This document shows, one piece after another, positions 2,071 to 18,220 of a DNA stretch of 39,908 nucleotides. The notes under the pieces are model-generated. The model was not told the DNA's origin. It made no database searches and was given only the letters and a program-made list of their open reading frames with translations. Source of the DNA: a virus. Taxonomy: Duplodnaviria; Heunggongvirae; Uroviricota; Caudoviricetes. Position numbers and translations under genes: made by a program. The stretch spans positions 1-39,908 of IMG/VR virus record IMGVR_UViG_2703718871_000021; one strand, given 5' to 3'. Numbering within the stretch: position 1 is the first letter of the stretch; each line of letters starts with the position of its first letter.

Positions 2071-3461
2071 GCTATACCTCTCTTTTTCATGGCATCGAGC
2101 AGGATGTCCTGCACTGTTCGTTTTGAGTTGCGCCGCTCCATCACCATTTCGTCCATAGTGTCGGCAGCAATAATGTGGTGAATAAATACCGGACGATTGT
2201 GTCCGGCCTGTATCTGTCTGGTTGGGCCGATACGTTCAATAATTTGCTGATACTGCTCCAGGTCCCACCAATGTGAGAAAAATACCAGTATGTTTCCGCC
2301 GTCCTGCATGTTCAGACCGTGGCCCGCGCTGGCTGGGTGTGCAAAGAGAACAGGAATCTTTCCGGAATTCCAGTCACGTAGTGTCTGTGGATCCTGGTCG
2401 AGGTTACGACCGCGAGGAAATGCTTTAAGCAAGCGTTCAAGATCGTGTTTCCAGTGATAAGCAACCAGCACAGGTGCGCCAGCTGCTTCGGTCAGTATGC
2501 TGTCCAGCGCCTGTAGTTTGGTGTCATGCAGTTCTGACCAACTTCCGGTGTCATCTGTGTATACTGCGCCGCTGGCGATTTGCAGACACTTCAGTGTCTT
2601 TGCCGCGGCGTTCGGTGCTTCGATGCCTTCGCCATTCAGCTCGAGGAACATTTCCTTTTCCATTTCACGATACTGCTGACGGGCCTTCGGCGGCATATCC
2701 ACGCGGATTACGTTATGGATGGGGTCTTTGATATCGAACCAGTCGGTCGCATCCAGCGAGAGGGTCACATCGGCTAACGCTCGCTGTATTTCACCCTGTG
2801 AGTGAGCAAAAGGCTCCAGTTTGGTCCAGCTCTGTCCCGGAAACTGTATCGATTTGAACCAGCGTGAGGTAAACGCGCCGTAAGTGCGCCCGAGACGTTG
2901 CCCCAGGTCCACAAACCACGATTGTCCCCACAAATCTACCAGGCCGTTCGGTGCTGGCGTACCGGTGAGATTTATCCAGCGCCGGACATACTTGTGCGCC
3001 ACTTTGCCCAGCGCCGCCGCGCGCTTACCACCACCTCGCAGCCGGAAGGATTTTAGCCGGGTGCTTTCATCTGGAATGACAGTACCGAACGGCCATCGTT
3101 CTCCCAATTCCTCAACCAGCCAGACAAGGTTATCGTAGTTGATGGTGAACACGCTCGCGTTGTTGTTCGCCAACGCTGCAGAGCGCGCTTTGGCATTACC
3201 AACAATTGGTTGTACCTCGATATTGCGCAAATGCCCCCACTTCAGTGCTTCATCCGGCCATGTGCTGGCAGCCACGCGCAGCGGCGCGAGAACCAGCGCA
3301 GGTTGTGTTTCTGCACCCGCCATGAAGAGGTCTTCCAGCGTAGTGAGTGTCGCTACGGTTTTACCCATTCCCATACCCGCCCAGATGTTGCCGCGCAGAA
3401 TGTTAGTTTGGTGATTGATTATGAGGTTTTGATAAATTCTGGGGTGGAATATGCTATTCAT
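2067..3461 (-). CDS. SNF2/DEAD-like superfamily-2 helicase (phage replication/recombination)
   Basis: 464-aa ORF; Walker A GMGMGKT near N-terminus, DExx-type box VIPDEST, C-terminal helicase-like region; start overlaps the excisionase stop (operon). Confidence 0.8.
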   Translation of the reverse strand: MNSIFHPRIYQNLIINHQTNILRGNIWAGMGMGKTVATLTTLEDLFMAGAETQPALVLAPLRVAASTWPDEALKWGHLRNIEVQPIVGNAKARSAALANNNASVFTINYDNLVWLVEELGERWPFGTVIPDESTRLKSFRLRGGGKRAAALGKVAHKYVRRWINLTGTPAPNGLVDLWGQSWFVDLGQRLGRTYGAFTSRWFKSIQFPGQSWTKLEPFAHSQGEIQRALADVTLSLDATDWFDIKDPIHNVIRVDMPPKARQQYREMEKEMFLELNGEGIEAPNAAAKTLKCLQIASGAVYTDDTGSWSELHDTKLQALDSILTEAAGAPVLVAYHWKHDLERLLKAFPRGRNLDQDPQTLRDWNSGKIPVLFAHPASAGHGLNMQDGGNILVFFSHWWDLEQYQQIIERIGPTRQIQAGHNRPVFIHHIIAADTMDEMVMERRNSKRTVQDILLDAMKKRGIA

Positions 3462-3522
3462 TAATACACCTATGGTAGAATATGGTCACTTCTCTCTCTA
3501 TATATAACTAACGGAGGCGGGT

Positions 3523-4320
3523 ATGCCCCTGGCGAAAATATTTACAAAGCAAGTTTCTTTATTAACTATGTTTTCAGCGTTAGCTTATGCGATGGCATAT
3601 TATTTTCAGAAAGGTGTTGCATCGTATTATGGCTATCCAGACCTTTTTATTAAAATAGACTTAAATACGCTATTGTATTCGGCTGTGTGGCTTTTGTTTT
3701 TTAGTTTTTTATTTCTCGGCGCCTTATATGCGGCGTTGATGTTTGATTTGAAAGGAAAATATTATGTTCCATTTATTGTATTTATAGTTGTTATGCTAAT
3801 GGCTAATATTTGTATAATAGGATTTCATTGGCCTTTTGGTTATTTCTCCGAAACTTCTGTGATGAGTGTTCAGGATATTTTATTATTTGCTATGCTTTTG
3901 TTGAATTATCACAATGTGGTGTCCATGCCAATCCATAGTAAGAGACACGAACATCATATGGAGAGCATTAGAAAATTTGGGAGGCTTGCAGAGTATAAGA
4001 ACGTATTTTATTATATCGATTTAAAAATCCTAAAGTCAGCTTTTCCTTTAGGGGTGATAACGTTGTTGATATTGAGCTATACATTCGGGAAGGTTACTGC
4101 ATTTAAAAATAACGAATATTATATGGTAGATGGTAGTAATACTAAAGTGTTGCTCAATTCATTTGGTAGTGGTTTTGTTGTTGGTGATTGTGAGTCAAAT
4201 AGCGCAAAATTTGAATTTGTTAATGATTTAAAAGGGATGAGATTCACAATCATGTCCTCTAAAAAGGAAATAGCTAAATTAAAAGAGTGTTTCGAAATAC
4301 GTGTTAAAAATACGGATTAA
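3523..4320 (+). CDS. hypothetical multi-pass membrane protein (AT-rich cargo gene)
   Basis: 265-aa ORF on the strand opposite to the surrounding early operon; visibly AT-rich; several long hydrophobic segments (LLYSAVWLLFFSFLFLGALYAAL, FIVFIVVMLMANICIIGF); GAGG-type RBS before ATG. Confidence 0.55.
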   Translation: MPLAKIFTKQVSLLTMFSALAYAMAYYFQKGVASYYGYPDLFIKIDLNTLLYSAVWLLFFSFLFLGALYAALMFDLKGKYYVPFIVFIVVMLMANICIIGFHWPFGYFSETSVMSVQDILLFAMLLLNYHNVVSMPIHSKRHEHHMESIRKFGRLAEYKNVFYYIDLKILKSAFPLGVITLLILSYTFGKVTAFKNNEYYMVDGSNTKVLLNSFGSGFVVGDCESNSAKFEFVNDLKGMRFTIMSSKKEIAKLKECFEIRVKNTD

Positions 4321-4332
4321 AGCATAAGTCTT

Positions 4333-4620
4333 TTATCCTTTATTGCGGCTTAAAATAATGGCCTCCAGATTTTTGCTATCCAGCACCACTACGGTAAAGC
4401 CCAGCGCGCGCAACCGTCCGTGTTCGCGCAACTGGTCAGGCCGTGGTGGCTTGCCGGGGGATTTACATTCAACGAAAATGATACGACCGCCGGGTAGCAG
4501 AACAATGCGATCTGGTACCGAGCGGCGACCGGGGGATACGAACTTAAAGGCAACCCCGCCAGCCTTTTTTACTTCAGCGACGAGGTGCTTTTCGATTAGG
4601 TTTTCACGTTCATAGGCCAT
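4333..4620 (-). CDS. VRR-NUC domain nuclease
   Basis: 95-aa ORF; EVKKAGG...FVECKSPGKPP...QLREH...GF pattern typical of VRR-NUC (PD-(D/E)xK-type) phage proteins; commonly paired with SNF2 helicases. Confidence 0.75.
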   Translation of the reverse strand: MAYERENLIEKHLVAEVKKAGGVAFKFVSPGRRSVPDRIVLLPGGRIIFVECKSPGKPPRPDQLREHGRLRALGFTVVVLDSKNLEAIILSRNKG

Positions 4621-4814
4621 TAGCTTTCGCCTTCCTGCTTTTTGCGTTTCTTCATGCAGATAGCGCAGTTCTCAGGATGGTCATGCCATTCATCAATCCT
4701 GATACCTGTGAACATCCATTTTCCGCATAGTGATATGGCTTCCCCCGAATTAAAGAAATGTGCTTTTTTTGACAGAGCGGGGAACCCCCAACCCTTATTA
4801 TCGATATTAGACAT
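4620..4814 (-). CDS. hypothetical small protein
   Basis: 64-aa ORF with strong RBS AAGGAGGTG before the ATG; stop overlaps VRR-NUC start; Cys/His-containing C-terminal part (HDHPENCAICMKK). Confidence 0.5.
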   Translation of the reverse strand: MSNIDNKGWGFPALSKKAHFFNSGEAISLCGKWMFTGIRIDEWHDHPENCAICMKKRKKQEGES

Positions 4815-4850
4815 CGTCCACCTCCTTACGCTTTTCGCGCATGTTCTGCA

Positions 4851-4985
4851 TCAGACAAAAATCAAACCGACGTTCGCTTTGGCCCAGACCTGCATCGCCC
4901 GGTCGTACCCGCCGGACTGTTCAAGGTGCAAAGCCTCCCGCACAGTCCGGTAATAAAGCGGACTGTCTCGGTATTTAAATGACAT
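4851..4985 (-). CDS. hypothetical small protein (44 aa)
   Basis: Short ORF found by hand (MSFKYRDSPLYYRTVREALHLEQSGGYDRAMQVWAKANVGLIFV), immediately upstream of and co-oriented with the 64-aa gene; below the 60-aa ORF-track cutoff. Confidence 0.3.
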   Translation of the reverse strand: MSFKYRDSPLYYRTVREALHLEQSGGYDRAMQVWAKANVGLIFV

Positions 4986-5000
4986 AGGGTTTTTATTCCC

Positions 5001-5048: not shown

Positions 5049-5810
5049 TTACGAGGAAGCGTTAGCTATTTGAGCTTGTGTAAATTCGAAACCAGAATTT
5101 TGTAACCGTTGCACTAGACGAGGAACTGTTTCACGTACATGGTCGTTGAAATTCAGATACAAAATCCCGTTAGCATCAGAAGGCTGTTCTAGGTGCTGTT
5201 TCTGAAGGATTGCTACATTGCTGCGCCCTAAGGACGAAAGAAGCATACCCATCTCGAGTACAACGTTCTGTCTTGCGCGGGGTTGGATTTCTGCTTCACC
5301 GGCGCGCTTTGAGTATCCCATATCATCAGGTGTCAAAAGAACAATCCCGAAACGGGTAGCAGTTTGTCCTTGCCCAATTTCACGTTCAAGCTCTTCAATA
5401 ATGGTGAGTCCAGTCCCTCCCGTATTCTGCAAAATGAAATGGTCTGGTAATCCAAGTTTATGAAGGATTAGCTCAAGTTGCTCCTTTGCAGTATGGTCAT
5501 GGCCGTGAACAATGAATATCTTTTTGGGGAGCTCAGATGGCTGTTCTACGGCTAGTGGTGTTGCCGTGGGCGGCGTTCCTAAATGGGTCATTATTGCAGT
5601 TTCAACATTGGGACGTTCTTGAGGGTTACCTTGAAACTGAATGGTCCGGGTGGTGTAAAGGTTAACAATTACGCCATTCGTTAAACGATAGCAGTCACAA
5701 GTCTCACGCTGTTCGTGGGAAAAATTGGTGAACCCACACTCCCTCAAAAAGTCAGGAAAAGATTCTCTCGGGTATGGATAGGTGATCGGCATTTCAGTTA
5801 GTTCCTGCAT
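5049..5810 (-). CDS. TIR-like-domain protein with unknown N-terminal domain (candidate defence or counter-defence effector)
   Basis: 253-aa ORF; residues ~97-230 (KKIFIVHGHDHTAKEQLELIL...GLTIIEELE...FGIVLLTPDDMGY...NVVLEMGML) fit my recollection of the bacterial TIR-like family (PF10137/COG4271 type); N-terminal ~95 aa unassignable; co-oriented with DNA polymerase gene. Confidence 0.6.
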   Translation of the reverse strand: MQELTEMPITYPYPRESFPDFLRECGFTNFSHEQRETCDCYRLTNGVIVNLYTTRTIQFQGNPQERPNVETAIMTHLGTPPTATPLAVEQPSELPKKIFIVHGHDHTAKEQLELILHKLGLPDHFILQNTGGTGLTIIEELEREIGQGQTATRFGIVLLTPDDMGYSKRAGEAEIQPRARQNVVLEMGMLLSSLGRSNVAILQKQHLEQPSDANGILYLNFNDHVRETVPRLVQRLQNSGFEFTQAQIANASS

Positions 5811-13177: not shown

Positions 13178-15364
13178 ATGTCCGATAGCAAACCATGGGG
13201 AGCTACGCCTGATGAGTGGTTTCATTTCGACCTGGTATTGGGGAGAACTGATCATCTTCTCCCAGTTGTATGTAACCCCGGTGCGACCATATCCCCTGAT
13301 AGTAAACTGAAAGCGCTGGGTAAGACGCCAAGTCGCTATAACCGGGACCATCAGGTCACCGGTATTGCTCAATGGACCGGGCATGTTGTTACTGAGCATG
13401 ATTTTGCCCGCTGGTCGAATGAACCGGATTATGGCATCTGCGTGCGTACAGGCCATGGCTGGCTGGCGCTGGACTGTGATAGCGAAGATGAAGACATTCA
13501 GGCAGATATTCGCAAAACGCTTGTGCAACTTCTGGGGGAGTTGCCGCCGCGACGCTGGCGAGCAAACAGTAATAAGTGTCTGTATCTGCTGGCCGTTGAT
13601 GGTGATTTCCGTAAGCGTATCCATCGCCTGGCGGGGGATATGGGCATTATCGAGTTGCTGGCGAACGGGCAGCAGTTCGTTGCCTGCGGTACGCACAGCA
13701 GCGGCGCGCGTATTGAATGGGACGGTGGTTTGCCGGATGAACCTCCGGCTATTACAGGTGAGCAGCTTGAAACGCTGTGGCAGCGCCTGGCTGAACAACT
13801 CCCTGTGTCGGTAACCACCGAAGCGGGCAACACGAAGATGCGCGACCGTTCAGCATTCACGCCCGGCGCGACGGATGATACAGCTGAATATCTTGATGCC
13901 AATGGCTGGACGCTGCTGGATGGCGCAAACGGTGAACGATATATCCGCTGTCCGTTTGAAGACGGCCACAGTAGCGGAGGCGATCCAACAAGCACTGTTT
14001 ATTTTCCTGCGGGAACCGCAGGCTTTGAGCAGGGGCATTTTAAATGCCTGCATGCCAGTTGCGCGCATCGTGATGACGGAGATTTCCTGAATGCCATCGG
14101 GATCCGCAACGACGATTTCGAAGATCTGACCAGCATCGAAGTGGCGGAACCTTTACCGCTGCCTGCTTTCGAGCGTGATAAATGGGGGCGTATCGAGGCA
14201 ACCATCAGCAACGCAGCCAAAGCAGTAGTACGCTCTGATTTTGTGGACATCGATATTCGCTTTGACCAGTTCCGCGACGAAATCATGTTTGCCCCGGCAG
14301 GATCCGGACAATGGCGGGCATTCACCGATGCGGATTATGCGCGCCTGCGCATCACGATGGAAAAGCGGGGATTTAAACCTGTTGGTCGTGAACTTATTCG
14401 CGATGTGGTGTTACTTGCAGCCGATGAACAACCATTCGATTCAGCGATCACCTGGCTGAACGGGCTGGAGTGGGATGGCGTGCCGCGCATCGAATGTTTC
14501 TACCATACGCACTTCGGTACAGCCGACACGCCTTATACCCGTGCGGTGTCTATGTACATGTGGACCGCGTTGGCGGGGCGAGTACTGGAGCCAGGCATCA
14601 AAGCGGATATGGTGCCGATCCTCGTTGGTCCGCAGGGCTGCGGTAAGTCTTCCGGAGTGGAGGCACTGAGCCCTGATCCTGCGTTTTTTACTGAAATCTC
14701 TTTTGCCGAAAAAGACGATGATCTCGCTCGAAAAATGCGTGGTCGGCTGGTGGCAGAGATTGGTGAACTGCGCGGACTTAATACCAAAGAGCTGGAGTCA
14801 ATCAAAGCGTTTGTGACGCGTACTCACGAAAACTGGATCCCGAAATACCGGGAGTTCGCCACCCAGTTTCCTCGTCGCCTGGTGTTCGTTGGTACCACTA
14901 ATGAGGACGAATTCCTTGCGGACAAGACTGGTAACCGTCGCTGGCTCCCCGTGGAAGTGTCGAAAGTCGACGTGAAAGCGATAAAAAGAGATCTCCTTTT
15001 ACTTTGGGCTGAGGCTCGTGAGGTGTTTCAGCGTCTGGGGGGTATCCAGTTCCGTGAGGCTGAACAACTGGCAGCGAGTGTCCATGAACAGTACACCATC
15101 AAGGATGCTTGGCTTGAAACGGTAGAGAAATGGCTCGACACGCCCGACCTGATGACTAATGAACTTCCGCGAAATTGCGAATTTTTACGCGCAAGTGATG
15201 TTTTGCGTGATGCGATTGGGCTAAATCCTGACCGCATCGGAAAACGCGAAGAAATGCGAATTAGTAATGTTTTGCAAAATTGCGGGTATAAGCGTGCCCA
15301 AAGGCGAATTGGGGGGAAAAAATGCAAGGTTTGGGAACCGCTGGAACCACGCGGAACCACCTAA
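13178..15364 (+). CDS. replication primase / P-loop NTPase (prim-pol-like N-terminus, VirE/D5-type C-terminus)
   Basis: 728-aa ORF; Walker A GPQGCGKSS and Walker B-like LVFVGTTNED in the C-terminal half; Cys/His-rich mid-region (CPFEDGHSSG...HFKCLHASCAH); directly after cro. Confidence 0.8.
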   Translation: MSDSKPWGATPDEWFHFDLVLGRTDHLLPVVCNPGATISPDSKLKALGKTPSRYNRDHQVTGIAQWTGHVVTEHDFARWSNEPDYGICVRTGHGWLALDCDSEDEDIQADIRKTLVQLLGELPPRRWRANSNKCLYLLAVDGDFRKRIHRLAGDMGIIELLANGQQFVACGTHSSGARIEWDGGLPDEPPAITGEQLETLWQRLAEQLPVSVTTEAGNTKMRDRSAFTPGATDDTAEYLDANGWTLLDGANGERYIRCPFEDGHSSGGDPTSTVYFPAGTAGFEQGHFKCLHASCAHRDDGDFLNAIGIRNDDFEDLTSIEVAEPLPLPAFERDKWGRIEATISNAAKAVVRSDFVDIDIRFDQFRDEIMFAPAGSGQWRAFTDADYARLRITMEKRGFKPVGRELIRDVVLLAADEQPFDSAITWLNGLEWDGVPRIECFYHTHFGTADTPYTRAVSMYMWTALAGRVLEPGIKADMVPILVGPQGCGKSSGVEALSPDPAFFTEISFAEKDDDLARKMRGRLVAEIGELRGLNTKELESIKAFVTRTHENWIPKYREFATQFPRRLVFVGTTNEDEFLADKTGNRRWLPVEVSKVDVKAIKRDLLLLWAEAREVFQRLGGIQFREAEQLAASVHEQYTIKDAWLETVEKWLDTPDLMTNELPRNCEFLRASDVLRDAIGLNPDRIGKREEMRISNVLQNCGYKRAQRRIGGKKCKVWEPLEPRGTT

Positions 15365-15520
15365 AAGAGAAGGTGGTTCCACCTTGCAGACCTTGTGGCA
15401 AGCGGGGCGGAACCACTGGAACCACTGGAACCGCCTTTCTACTAGAAACCCCATATATATATAAGTCGATTGAGGGAAAGGTTAGGAAAAGGTGGTTCCA
15501 GGTGGGGGCAGGTGGTTCCA
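15331..15520. repeat. iteron-like repeat array with AT-rich spacer (putative phage replication origin)
   Basis: GGAACC(A/G)C in direct orientation at 15334, 15343, 15353, 15409, 15418, 15427 and inverted (GGTGGTTCC) at ~15375, 15494, 15514; ATATATATATAA at 15453-15464; overlaps the 3' end of the primase gene. Confidence 0.5.
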
Positions 15521-15650
15521 CTCCGAATTAGCAACTTTTTACATGTTGATACATGCAATATGCGGATCGGAACTGCGTTATCCACACCCACGGATAAACA
15601 GACGTAGTTCTCAGAAAATTTTTTCGTAGCAAAACGTAGAGGTCAGAGCT

Positions 15651-16073
15651 ATGCGTAATATTCAACAGGTTTTAGAGCGCTGGGGTGGCTGGGCAGCGAG
15701 TGAAGGTGGTAGCGTCTACTTTCCTCCTGTTGCAGCTGGGTTTAAGAATCTGCTACCCGCGACGCAGTCTGGAAGGCTGAAATGCAGTGACAATGACGGT
15801 CTTATCATCAACTCCGCTATGAGCTGCCTGAAGAAAAAAGATCCGTATCTGTGCACGCTCCTTGAGTGGCATTACGTCCAGGCCATGCCCGTGCGGACGA
15901 TGGGTGAGAAGCTCGGCGTATCTCACACCCACGTTCTGAAGAGGCTTCAGGCGGCAGAGGGATTTATTGACGGTTGCTTAGCCATGCTGGATGTGGTGCT
16001 CGAAATGGATCAGTCGGTTCAGTCAAAGCCTCAGGCTATCAGGACTTTGCGTAGGAGCTGCTCGGCGGCATAA
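15651..16073 (+). CDS. Q-like late-gene antitermination protein
   Basis: 140-aa ORF starting MRNIQQVLERWGGWAA, resembling enterobacterial prophage Q antiterminators as I recall them; sits between replication genes and lysis cassette. Confidence 0.65.
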   Translation: MRNIQQVLERWGGWAASEGGSVYFPPVAAGFKNLLPATQSGRLKCSDNDGLIINSAMSCLKKKDPYLCTLLEWHYVQAMPVRTMGEKLGVSHTHVLKRLQAAEGFIDGCLAMLDVVLEMDQSVQSKPQAIRTLRRSCSAA

Positions 16074-16104
16074 TATCCAGCAATCAATCACGTAAGGGAA
16101 CCAG

Positions 16105-16446
16105 ATGGCTCTGATCAGCGTTCGCAACAGATTTGAAAGCTTCATGGAACAGAGGTACCCAGACCTGTCGTTGCAGGTCAAAGGTAATATTGGCGCATCA
16201 ATGAAGGCTCAACTTGGTATCAGGATTGAACGAGAATTGTACAGTGAAGATGTTACTTACTGTGATTCAGCAGTTCAGTTGATGTGGACACTCTTTCAGG
16301 CAGGTGTTCTGGCCGAACGAAGAGCTACCAGCGTTACGCTTCCTGCGCTGAAGGCAAAGCCGGATAGCTTCTACGATGCGGGTTATAACGAAGGTATTCA
16401 GGACTGTCGTAAACATCTGACGGCATCAGGCATCAAGGTAAGATAA
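16105..16446 (+). CDS. hypothetical protein in the Q-to-lysis cargo position
   Basis: 113-aa ORF with AGGGAA-type RBS; no recognisable motif; followed by a hairpin terminator. Confidence 0.6.
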   Translation: MALISVRNRFESFMEQRYPDLSLQVKGNIGASMKAQLGIRIERELYSEDVTYCDSAVQLMWTLFQAGVLAERRATSVTLPALKAKPDSFYDAGYNEGIQDCRKHLTASGIKVR

Positions 16447-16511
16447 AAAATAGTTGTGGAATTCCAAAAAGCCGATTAGCCTGATATCTGTTGAAAACAG
16501 TTCATCACGAA

Positions 16512-16537
16512 GAGGCTCCCGCAAGGGGGCTTTTTTA
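16512..16537 (+). terminator. putative rho-independent terminator
   Basis: GCTCCC-gcaa-GGGGGC followed by TTTTTT. Confidence 0.45.
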
Positions 16538-16692
16538 ATGCTCTATTCTCAGTAAAAGTTAATAAAACAGGGTTTTCGTCGCGAAAAAACGCTATGCAGT
16601 TTTTGCCCTTTTTTATGCACCTTTTATTCACTCGGATTTCGTCATTCTGGACCACTTAAGTTGATTAAATAGGCCTTTCATCGCAAATCTAT

Positions 16693-16722
16693 TGCGAGTG
16701 GTGATCGTGTGGTTCCTATAAC
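16693..16722 (+). promoter_or_regulatory. candidate late promoter (PR'-like)
   Basis: TTGCGA (16693-16698), 18-bp spacer, TATAAC (16717-16722), about 45 bp upstream of a strong terminator hairpin and about 170 bp upstream of the holin gene. Confidence 0.3.
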
Positions 16723-16765
16723 GCACATTATGTTAAATAACCTCCTTTTTTAACAAATTTAACAA

Positions 16766-16790
16766 GGTTCGCTATGGCGAACTTTTTTTG
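16766..16790 (+). terminator. putative rho-independent terminator (tR'-like) upstream of lysis genes
   Basis: GGTTCGC-tatg-GCGAAC followed by TTTTTTT. Confidence 0.5.
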
Positions 16791-16890
16791 TATTCAGGGC
16801 CCACCGAAGGACGGCTCATAACCCAATCCTACGGGCGTATACGCAGGGCCCGCCTTTCAACAACACCCCGTAATGGCGGAGGTGGGAAGT

Positions 16891-17232
16891 ATGAAAATGC
16901 ACAATGCTCCTCATTCCTGGCCTGACTTACTGGAACTCTTACAAAGTTGGTGGCGTGGAGATACGCCGTTGGGCGCAGTGGTTATGTCAATTGTTATGGC
17001 TGGCTTGCGCATTGCCTATTTTGGCGGTGGCGGCGGCTGGAAACGAAAAACGCTTGAGATTTTGCTCTGTGGTGCTCTGACGCTGACCTTTGCATCCGCT
17101 CTTGAGTATGTTGGATGGCCTAAATCGCTTTCTGTTGCCATTGGTGGTGGTGTTGGGCTGATCGGTGTCGATGCTATTCGTGGGGCTGCAATGCGAGTAA
17201 TCGGTAACAAGTTTGGTGGCTCTAAGGAGTAA
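16891..17232 (+). CDS. holin with dual-start motif
   Basis: Strong RBS GGAGGTG 7 nt before ATG 16891; Met-Lys-Met start as in lambda S holin/antiholin; two to three hydrophobic helices (AVVMSIVMAGLRIAYFGGGG, ILLCGALTLTFASAL, VAIGGGVGLIGV); immediately precedes endolysin. Confidence 0.75.
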   Translation: MKMHNAPHSWPDLLELLQSWWRGDTPLGAVVMSIVMAGLRIAYFGGGGGWKRKTLEILLCGALTLTFASALEYVGWPKSLSVAIGGGVGLIGVDAIRGAAMRVIGNKFGGSKE

Positions 17233-17235
17233 TTC

Positions 17236-17712
17236 ATGCAGACACTAAATTCCCAGCGTAAAGCTTTCCTGGATATGGTGGCATGGTCAGAAGGAACGGA
17301 TAACGGGCGACAACCGACACGTAACCACGGTTATGATGTTATTGTCGGTGGTGAACTGTTCACTGATTACTCCGATCACCCTCGCAGACTTGTCACGCTA
17401 AACCCGAAGCTTAAATCAACAGCCGCAGGCCGGTATCAGCTTCTTTCACGCTGGTGGGATGCCTACCGCAAGCAGCTTGGCCTGAAAGATTTTTCGCCAG
17501 AAAGTCAGGACGCTGTGGCGCTGCAGCAGATTAAAGAGCGTGGCGCTTTACCGATGATTGACCGTGGCGATATTCGTCAGGCAATCGACCGTTGCAGCAA
17601 TATCTGGGCGTCGTTACCTGGTGCAGGTTACGGTCAGTATGAACATAAAATCGGTGACCTGATTTCCAGGTTTAAAGATGCTGGTGGGGTGGTAAATGAA
17701 GCTGACTTATAA
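17236..17712 (+). CDS. R: endolysin, lambda R-like lytic transglycosylase
   Basis: 158-aa ORF very similar over most of its length to lambda R as I recall it (NSQRKAFLDMVAWSEGTDNGRQPTRNHGYDVIVGGELFTDYSDHPR...). Confidence 0.9.
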   Translation: MQTLNSQRKAFLDMVAWSEGTDNGRQPTRNHGYDVIVGGELFTDYSDHPRRLVTLNPKLKSTAAGRYQLLSRWWDAYRKQLGLKDFSPESQDAVALQQIKERGALPMIDRGDIRQAIDRCSNIWASLPGAGYGQYEHKIGDLISRFKDAGGVVNEADL

Positions 17713-18220
17713 GATTGTCATCGCGGCATTTTTCTTCTCTGCCTTTGGGGCGCTCGTCTGGTCTGCAAACCATTACCACAGCAAGTATCAGGCAGAAAAG
17801 TTGCGGGCTGATAAAGCGGAAGGTGAAGCTGAATATCAAGGGAAAGTGATAGCTAATCAGGCATTAAACTTCAATCGTTTTAACCAGATAGCAGAAAACG
17901 CAAGCCGATTAAATTCTCTGGTCGACATCGGTCACGAGAAGACAGTCATCAAATACCGTGAGGTTCTGCTCCGTGAAAAGAACTGTGATTTTCCTGTTCC
18001 TGTTGATATTGCTGTCGGGTTGCTCAACTACGCGAACCGTTTACGCGCCAGCGCATTGCACGCCGATTCCGGGGACATTGACTCAGCCGGTGATCGTGCC
18101 ACTACCACCAGAACGTTGACATATTGCCAGGCTGTTCTGTGGATTAACCCACTGTTGGCAGCCATCGAGAAGGCGAATAACCAGTTGGCTGGTGTCCGAC
18201 AAATAGAACAGTCCCGGTAA
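17696..18220 (+). CDS. Rz: Rz-like inner-membrane spanin
   Basis: 174-aa ORF overlapping endolysin stop; N-terminal TM segment (IVIAAFFFSAFGALVWSA) then charged coiled-coil-like region; lysis cassette position. Confidence 0.75.
   Translation: MKLTYKIVIAAFFFSAFGALVWSANHYHSKYQAEKLRADKAEGEAEYQGKVIANQALNFNRFNQIAENASRLNSLVDIGHEKTVIKYREVLLREKNCDFPVPVDIAVGLLNYANRLRASALHADSGDIDSAGDRATTTRTLTYCQAVLWINPLLAAIEKANNQLAGVRQIEQSR
17973..18119 (+). CDS. Rz1: Rz1-like outer-membrane lipoprotein spanin, embedded in Rz in another frame
   Basis: 48-codon ORF from GTG 17973: VKRTVIFLFLLILLSGCSTTRTVYAPAHCTPIPGTLTQPVIVPLPPER; lipobox L-S-G-C, proline-rich mature part; wholly inside Rz. Confidence 0.6.
   Translation: MKRTVIFLFLLILLSGCSTTRTVYAPAHCTPIPGTLTQPVIVPLPPER

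Follow-up and report, generated by a model that had tools for sequence, protein, structure and literature searches.

A conserved yet readily lost gene of the phiTE_015 family between Q and the candidate late promoter of an Escherichia coli prophage

The 39,908-nucleotide (nt) virus record IMGVR_UViG_2703718871_000021 of IMG/VR, analysed here over its whole length and referred to as the window, carries a 113-codon open reading frame (ORF113; 16105–16446, + strand) for which an initial annotation had proposed a role as lysogenic-conversion or defence cargo in the Q-to-lysis interval. We favour another explanation, namely that ORF113 encodes a non-essential cytoplasmic accessory protein, made together with Q at the early-to-late transition, that would bind a partner and confer a conditional advantage in lytic growth. 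This explanation, taken as a whole package, we place a little on the probable side of even; our confidence exceeds that level for the anatomy of the locus and the assignment to a family, whereas the mode of action is held with low confidence.

ORF113 is a genuine gene under strong purifying selection and no chance reading frame. Its ATG start codon lies 5 nt behind a ribosome-binding site (TAAGGGA, 16093–16099, + strand) found by direct reading of the sequence, and comparison with the orthologue at locus L026, in a close E. coli relative (86% protein identity), gave 0.08 non-synonymous (dN) and 1.37 synonymous (dS) substitutions per site, i.e. a dN/dS of ~0.06, a constraint comparable to that on Q itself. 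The GC content of the gene is 47.5% against 53.8% for Q. The protein (12.7 kDa, isoelectric point 8.6, grand average of hydropathy −0.25) is predicted to be soluble; no hydrophobic or membrane segment and no signal peptide was found when these were looked for in it, and it displays no catalytic, DNA-binding, membrane or secretion signature.

The surroundings of the gene are as initially annotated, with a Q-like antiterminator gene ahead of it and a late promoter and lysis cassette (holin, endolysin and Rz) behind. The Q-type gene (140 amino acids; 15651–16073, + strand; PF06530, E 6.6e-42; phrog_79), whose product shows a weak N-terminal similarity to the Q21 chains 6p18/6jnx, ends 31 nt before ORF113. 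To place the downstream border, DNA was compared around 15 distinct loci carrying an ORF113 homologue. Six of these (the window, L026, Rahnella L004, Erwinia L007, L029 and L034) share a Q of one PF06530 branch, L026 being the close relative mentioned above and the other four being divergent. The homologue follows Q at ~10–50 nt in all six (31 nt in the window, 15 nt in L004 and 11 nt in L007), and a 16-mer, TTGTGGAATTCCAAAA, with the palindromic core TGGAATTCCA, begins 3–8 nt past its stop codon (8 nt in the window), with a different last base in L007. This 16-mer is non-coding throughout (16454–16469 in the window, 6333–6348 in L004, 5328–5343 in L007, from 4273 in L029, from 4330 in L034, and also in L026). 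It opens with TTGTGG, and exactly 17 nt after this hexamer all six loci have a TAnnCT hexamer (TAGCCT, TAATCT, TATTCT, TAACCT or TACTCT), followed by a partly conserved leader and, in five of them (the window, L004, L026, L029 and L034), by a hairpin with a T-run; L007 has the T-run alone at this position and a hairpin ~50 nt further on. At L037, where the PF06530 Q has a different C-terminus, the homologous promoter–leader–terminator unit stands directly after Q and the ORF113 homologue lies behind the unit.

Since the conserved block tracks the type of Q and not the replication module, which differs in L004, we read positions 16454–16482 (+ strand) as the putative late promoter PR′, with TTGTGG (16454–16459) as the −35 and TAGCCT (16477–16482) as the −10 hexamer; the site is also a position weight matrix (PWM) match. 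The terminator that had been noted after the gene is indeed present as a strong hairpin with a U-run (T1; 16509–16536, + strand; 12-bp stem, GCAA loop, U6; −19.4 kcal/mol, z −2.8), and would be the tR′ of a short PR′ transcript while also stopping read-through from the early operon. Judged from sequence conservation, the 16-mer TTGTGGAATTCCAAAA is the candidate in this PF06530 branch for a Q-binding element, which we place between the two hexamers (GGAATTCC). A limited literature search found no description of this PR′ unit or of the 16-mer as a Q-binding element. The 16-mer was also considered as a binding site tied to ORF113 itself, given a reverse-oriented TTGTGGAAT behind the homologue in L008, an idea that was dropped because the block follows the type of Q and lies upstream of the gene in L037.

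A late promoter upstream of ORF113 was likewise considered and rejected. The PWM scan yielded only a weak site here (TTGCGT-16 nt-CATAAT, 16047–16074), which has 8/12 consensus positions and lies inside the 3′ end of the Q coding sequence. Its conservation, in L026 as TTGCAC...CATAAT, stops at the E. coli lineage, the site being absent from L004, L007, L029 and L034, and no conserved promoter was found between Q and the ORF113 homologue in the PF06530 loci compared.

The position of ORF113 between Q and PR′ suggests that it is the last gene of an early-right operon comprising the cro-like gene, the primase gene, the origin iterons, Q and ORF113. With only 31 nt separating it from Q, a good ribosome-binding site and no more than a weak promoter-like site of its own, co-transcription with Q is the simplest reading; after induction, transcription would come from the repressor-controlled early promoter. 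Such co-transcription would place expression at the early-to-late transition of the lytic cycle and leave the gene silent in the repressed lysogen. Immediately downstream, PR′ would be Q-dependent, its short transcript ending at T1. The protein itself may bind a host or phage partner through a conserved loop–helix surface, LPxLKxKPDxFYDAGYNEG, and the binding could bring a conditional benefit, e.g. in host takeover or counter-defence; the nin-region genes of lambdoid phages give conditional benefits of this kind.

Several points weigh against this explanation. The expression timing is deduced from anatomy alone, and the weak sigma-70-like site in the 3′ end of Q (16047–16074) could give expression in lysogens of the E. 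coli lineage. Relatives with other Q families carry the homologue downstream of PR′, so that early timing is no constant of the family, and at two of these loci (L008 and L032) its position between PR′ and the first terminator would allow constitutive expression. Finally, the fold searches that bear on the partner-binding mechanism returned uncharacterised phage proteins only.

ORF113 belongs to a widespread and already catalogued family (PF26207/PHROG 343) that has no member with known function, in agreement with the initial description of its function as unrecognisable. In a PHROGs profile search, phrog_343 (function unknown) matched residues 5–112 with an E value of 2.8e-18. Two small partial families were also returned, among them PHROG 15831, whose ‘head closure’ label we rejected because this small family matches residues 60–112 only and is contradicted by the gene context. 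The Pfam copy searched directly lacked the PF26207 (Phage_phiTE_015) model, and membership rests on the precomputed assignments carried by proteins 99–100% identical to ORF113; recent RefSeq annotations name the identical locus ‘phiTE_015 family protein’. Neither this Pfam copy nor NCBIfam, PADLOC or the PDB sequences gave a match to the protein, and no defence-protein hidden Markov model of PADLOC-DB was hit at E <= 1. A single-sequence search of 1.84 billion representatives recovered only 13 relatives. Profile searches extended these to ~40 close clusters, all from Enterobacterales, and beyond them to >200 clusters of PF26207, found in Salmonella, E. coli, Citrobacter and Pseudomonas and all labelled hypothetical. 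No paper on phiTE_015, PF26207 or WP_001174014 was found in the literature.

A 33-sequence alignment of the close subfamily showed nine invariant residues (Q58, W61, G67, L79, P80, P86, D91, G93 and N95), and the invariant positions fall within the motif LPxLKxKPDxFYDAGYNEGIxDCRK. An N-terminal helix (F10, E11; consensus YPxLxL) was found only in the ORF113 subfamily, while the core common to PF26207/PHROG 343 is built from the strand (I/V)xLP, a loop that contains a proline, the helix N(E/A)(G/A)IxxCxxxIxAxG and the terminal strand (I/V)KV(K/R). Alignment with the S9-5 and Orisa03 members places this C-terminal strand–loop–helix–strand core in ORF113. An AlphaFold2 model built with the 33 sequences (predicted local distance difference test score, pLDDT, 76; predicted template modelling score, pTM, 0.59) contains helices at residues 6–17, 55–74 and 89–107 and a short one at 41–44, the latter within a variable, low-confidence region (30–46). 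It has few bridge or strand residues, those at 76–77 and 111–112 being too short for strand elements. The model matched no fold among solved structures, and Foldseek against the viral models of BFVD returned uncharacterised phage proteins only. Homology and structure searches for a protein of known function, the outcome that the initial annotation had named as speaking against its cargo proposal, thus found none. Kinship with Ead/Ea22, hinted at by one annotation and one weak BFVD match, was dropped as Pfam support for it was not found.

Outside the close subfamily, in P22-like Salmonella prophages, phage Gally, a Shiga toxin (Stx) 2a phage and a Pseudomonas phage, PF26207 members take the first slot of the nin region, flanked by the gene for the replicative helicase or P on one side and ninB on the other. 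The nin region is a tightly packed block of non-essential early-right genes (PMC8022706). This delayed-early slot agrees with an early, lytic expression of ORF113.

Natural loss alleles indicate that ORF113 is dispensable for the phage. A frameshifting deletion of 286 bp (16108–16393, + strand), which spares the ATG and the gene's final 53 nt, is found in the deposited phages vB_EcoM-611R5, 606R2, 689R2 and 683R1, all four ~92% identical to the window across the region. Among 94 complete E. coli genomes matching the region, 62 do so over the full length, ~31 match only from ~16390 onward and one shows a different deletion. A further allele lacks 1 nt at ORF nucleotide 118, which reduces the product to 58 amino acids; three IMG/VR contigs carry it, as does a protein cluster on 85 contigs, and two further truncated products (P0015 and P0021) were identified. 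Constrained where intact yet readily lost, ORF113 behaves as a conditionally useful accessory gene.

The position of the gene relative to PR′ varies with the type of Q. In loci with a lambda-type Q (PF03589; L002, L005/L006, L008, L032, L033 and L035), the homologue is preceded by a unit that closely resembles the authentic lambda PR′: lambda itself has TTGACT-17 nt-TAAATT followed by AACGATGGG, and these relatives have TTGCGTTTTGCATAAA..TGGCGTAnnTT followed by AAATAGTGGG. Loci with a DUF1133-type protein (L039–L045) also show a strong promoter and a terminator ahead of the homologue, and at L009, the single locus of the Q82 type, the Q-side promoter is followed by ORF6N and HicAB and only then, at a distance of ~1.5 kb, by the homologue. 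Overall, the ORF113 subfamily abuts a PR′/tR′ unit in 14 of the 15 distinct loci, on either side (the early side in the window), and the abutting loci span three antiterminator families (PF06530, PF03589 and DUF1133). In a scan of genome contigs 42 patterns matched, none of them leading to a confirmed locus.

At L008 (4901–5365) and L032 (~3860–4340) the homologue has a TTG start codon and is placed between the lambda-like PR′ and the first terminator, the position of the 6S RNA in lambda; these two homologues could be transcribed constitutively, even in lysogens. Classic cargo genes (HicAB, Fic/Phd, Mom and a methyltransferase) are also present in the Q-to-lysis interval of relatives. In Serratia L008 a tRNA-like 3′ end (GGTTCGATCCC...CCA, 5590–5660) was observed in this interval, between an ogr/delta-like gene and mom, recalling the tRNA genes that Stx phages have downstream of PR′. 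Erwinia L007 has two Q genes (123 and 133 amino acids) with two reverse-strand genes between them (2529–4989), an arrangement that looks like an insertion with duplication.

Among the competing explanations, the one closest to the initial proposal is that ORF113 is moron-type cargo: its own promoter would drive expression in the lysogen, and the host would gain a lysogenic-conversion or an anti-phage defence or exclusion phenotype. Its presence/absence polymorphism among near-identical prophages is what accessory cargo would show, and this part of the cargo proposal stands. The classic cargo genes in the relatives' Q-to-lysis interval, the promoter-like site at 16047–16074 with its counterpart in L026, the slightly lower GC content compared with Q and the L008/L032 homologues, which from their place between PR′ and the first terminator should be constitutively transcribed, point the same way. 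However, ORF113 itself lies upstream of PR′ and is tightly coupled to Q, and the promoter-like site is a poor match within the coding sequence of Q that is absent from the four divergent PF06530 loci. The protein has no PADLOC match, membrane segment or signal peptide. Members of the wider family are early genes of the nin region and also occur in phages carrying Stx elsewhere, and a strong benefit to the lysogen is at odds with how often the gene has decayed in prophages. With no conserved promoter of its own either, the candidacy as a lysogenic-conversion or defence factor found no support, and we judge this alternative unlikely.

We see only a small chance that ORF113 is a DNA-metabolism accessory, a replication or recombination helper that would act together with the phage replication module. 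In its favour, members in P22-like, Stx and Pseudomonas phages are the immediate downstream neighbours of the replicative helicase or P gene, with ninB coming next, and in the window ORF113 follows the primase gene, the origin iterons and Q.

A modulator of the early-to-late switch appears just as improbable. Here the Q-adjacent subfamily with the YDAGYNEG motif would tune Q loading or the output of the late promoter by binding to Q, sigma-70, NusA or RNA polymerase, which would explain why the homologue abuts PR′/tR′ in 14 of 15 loci, under three antiterminator families; the subfamily-specific N-terminal helix (F10, E11; YPxLxL) is also in line with it. The Q–PR′ junction is, however, a known hot spot for accessory insertions, and the adjacency may reflect just that. 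Further, the L009 homologue lies ~1.5 kb from PR′ behind ORF6N and HicAB, deposited phages do without ORF113, the wider family sits far from Q in the nin region, and the independence of the Q family makes a specific Q partner less likely. A general switch tuner, in which the same subfamily would act through host RNA polymerase, sigma-70 or NusA at the promoter-proximal pause and would need no particular Q, would account for the hugging of PR′ across the three antiterminator families, and its prospects are slimmer still. A lysis accessory (holin, antiholin or spanin) fits poorly, as ORF113 has no hydrophobic segment and PR′ and two terminators separate it from the holin gene.

The window is an E. 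coli prophage: its 1.3-kb Q-to-holin segment is 98–99% identical to chromosomal prophages of many complete E. coli genomes, including enterotoxigenic E. coli H10407, O55:H7 CB9615 and O103:H2 12009. In a compact regulatory layout, an S24/LexA-type repressor and a cro-like gene are divergently oriented, and the cro-like gene is followed by a VapE-type primase, then an iteron field, then Q, ORF113 and the lysis and morphogenesis genes. Between the primase gene and Q, ~10 copies of the iteron GGAACCAC / GTGGTTCC occur in both orientations (15334–15525) and flank the AT-rich TATATATATA at 15454–15463; this field is likely to be the replication origin of the phage. With two bases taken out, the PR′ block GTGGAATTCCA is similar to the iteron, probably by coincidence. 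An Rfam search of 15300–17300 returned nothing relevant.

Downstream of ORF113 follow a lambda-family holin gene (PF05106), the genes for endolysin and Rz, and those for the small and large terminase subunits. A second intrinsic terminator (T2; 16764–16792, + strand; 9-bp stem and T7) lies between PR′ and the holin gene. The holin gene, first of the lysis cassette (16892–17232, + strand; PF05106 E 1.2e-27), was placed by the RefSeq start in L003, which maps to 16892, the program-made ORF list starting it earlier, at 16873. It opens with ATG-AAA-ATG (16892–16900), the Met-Lys-Met dual-start holin/antiholin motif known from lambda S. GGGCCC-containing inverted repeats just upstream of the holin start (16797–16872), identical in phage 611R5, may form an RNA structure affecting holin translation. 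Embedded in Rz (17696–18220), a 53-amino-acid ORF in the +1 frame with a lipobox (LLSGC; 17958–18119, + strand) is of the Rz1 outer-membrane spanin type. On the minus strand, a promoter-like site (TTGTTA-18 nt-CATAAT, 16756–16727) faces a 59-amino-acid ORF with a GTG start (16476–16655, − strand), described as lying between T1 and T2. Its coding capacity is doubtful; in phage 611R5 a 38-amino-acid minus-strand coding sequence is annotated in the same T1–T2 interval.

If the favoured explanation is true, ORF113 is an ordinary accessory gene and no virulence or defence determinant, and it is of low priority as cargo. Its protein and family were already catalogued as uncharacterised, and no new kind of system is established here. 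The modest by-products of the comparison, of interest to specialists, are a candidate unit of late promoter, Q-binding element and terminator for this PF06530 antiterminator branch, and the consistent adjacency of an uncharacterised family to PR′ with three antiterminator families (~1.5 kb downstream with a fourth). The natural knock-out alleles are usable for a direct functional test.

Compared with known systems, ORF113 shares with PF26207/PHROG 343 the profile match over residues 5–112 and the common C-terminal core, but its subfamily is divergent, confined to Enterobacterales, has its own N-terminal helix and PDxFYDAGYNEG motif, and adjoins Q/PR′, whereas members of the wider family have their place behind the helicase gene, in the first nin slot. 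Cargo of the stx type lies downstream of PR′/tR′ and is Q-dependent. With such Q–S cargo ORF113 has in common the Q-to-holin interval and a variable presence, and its homologues at lambda-type Q loci even stand in a Stx-like position, as the first gene after PR′–tR′. ORF113 itself lies upstream of the conserved PR′ unit, would not be Q-dependent, judging from its position, and shows no similarity to a toxin or enzyme; its sole candidate promoter is weak and unconserved outside the E. coli lineage. As the conserved unit starts 8 nt past the ORF113 stop codon and the gene itself lies 31 nt from Q, the Stx analogy drawn in the initial annotation misfits the anatomy of the locus.

The nin genes of lambdoid phages (lambda ren and ninA–ninI; P22 ninA–ninZ) come closer. 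Although ORF113 has no homology to any named nin protein, it is, like them, small, non-essential, mosaic and tightly packed between the replication genes and the late promoter. By position it fits a nin-type gene, 31 nt behind Q and with the inferred PR′ 8 nt past its stop codon, and it is dispensable for phage growth, the viability of the deletion variants being implied by their deposition as phage genomes. The order of genes is what differs: the late activator Q is normally the early-right operon's last gene in lambdoid phages (PMC8022706), whereas ORF113 follows Q here and in five related phages.
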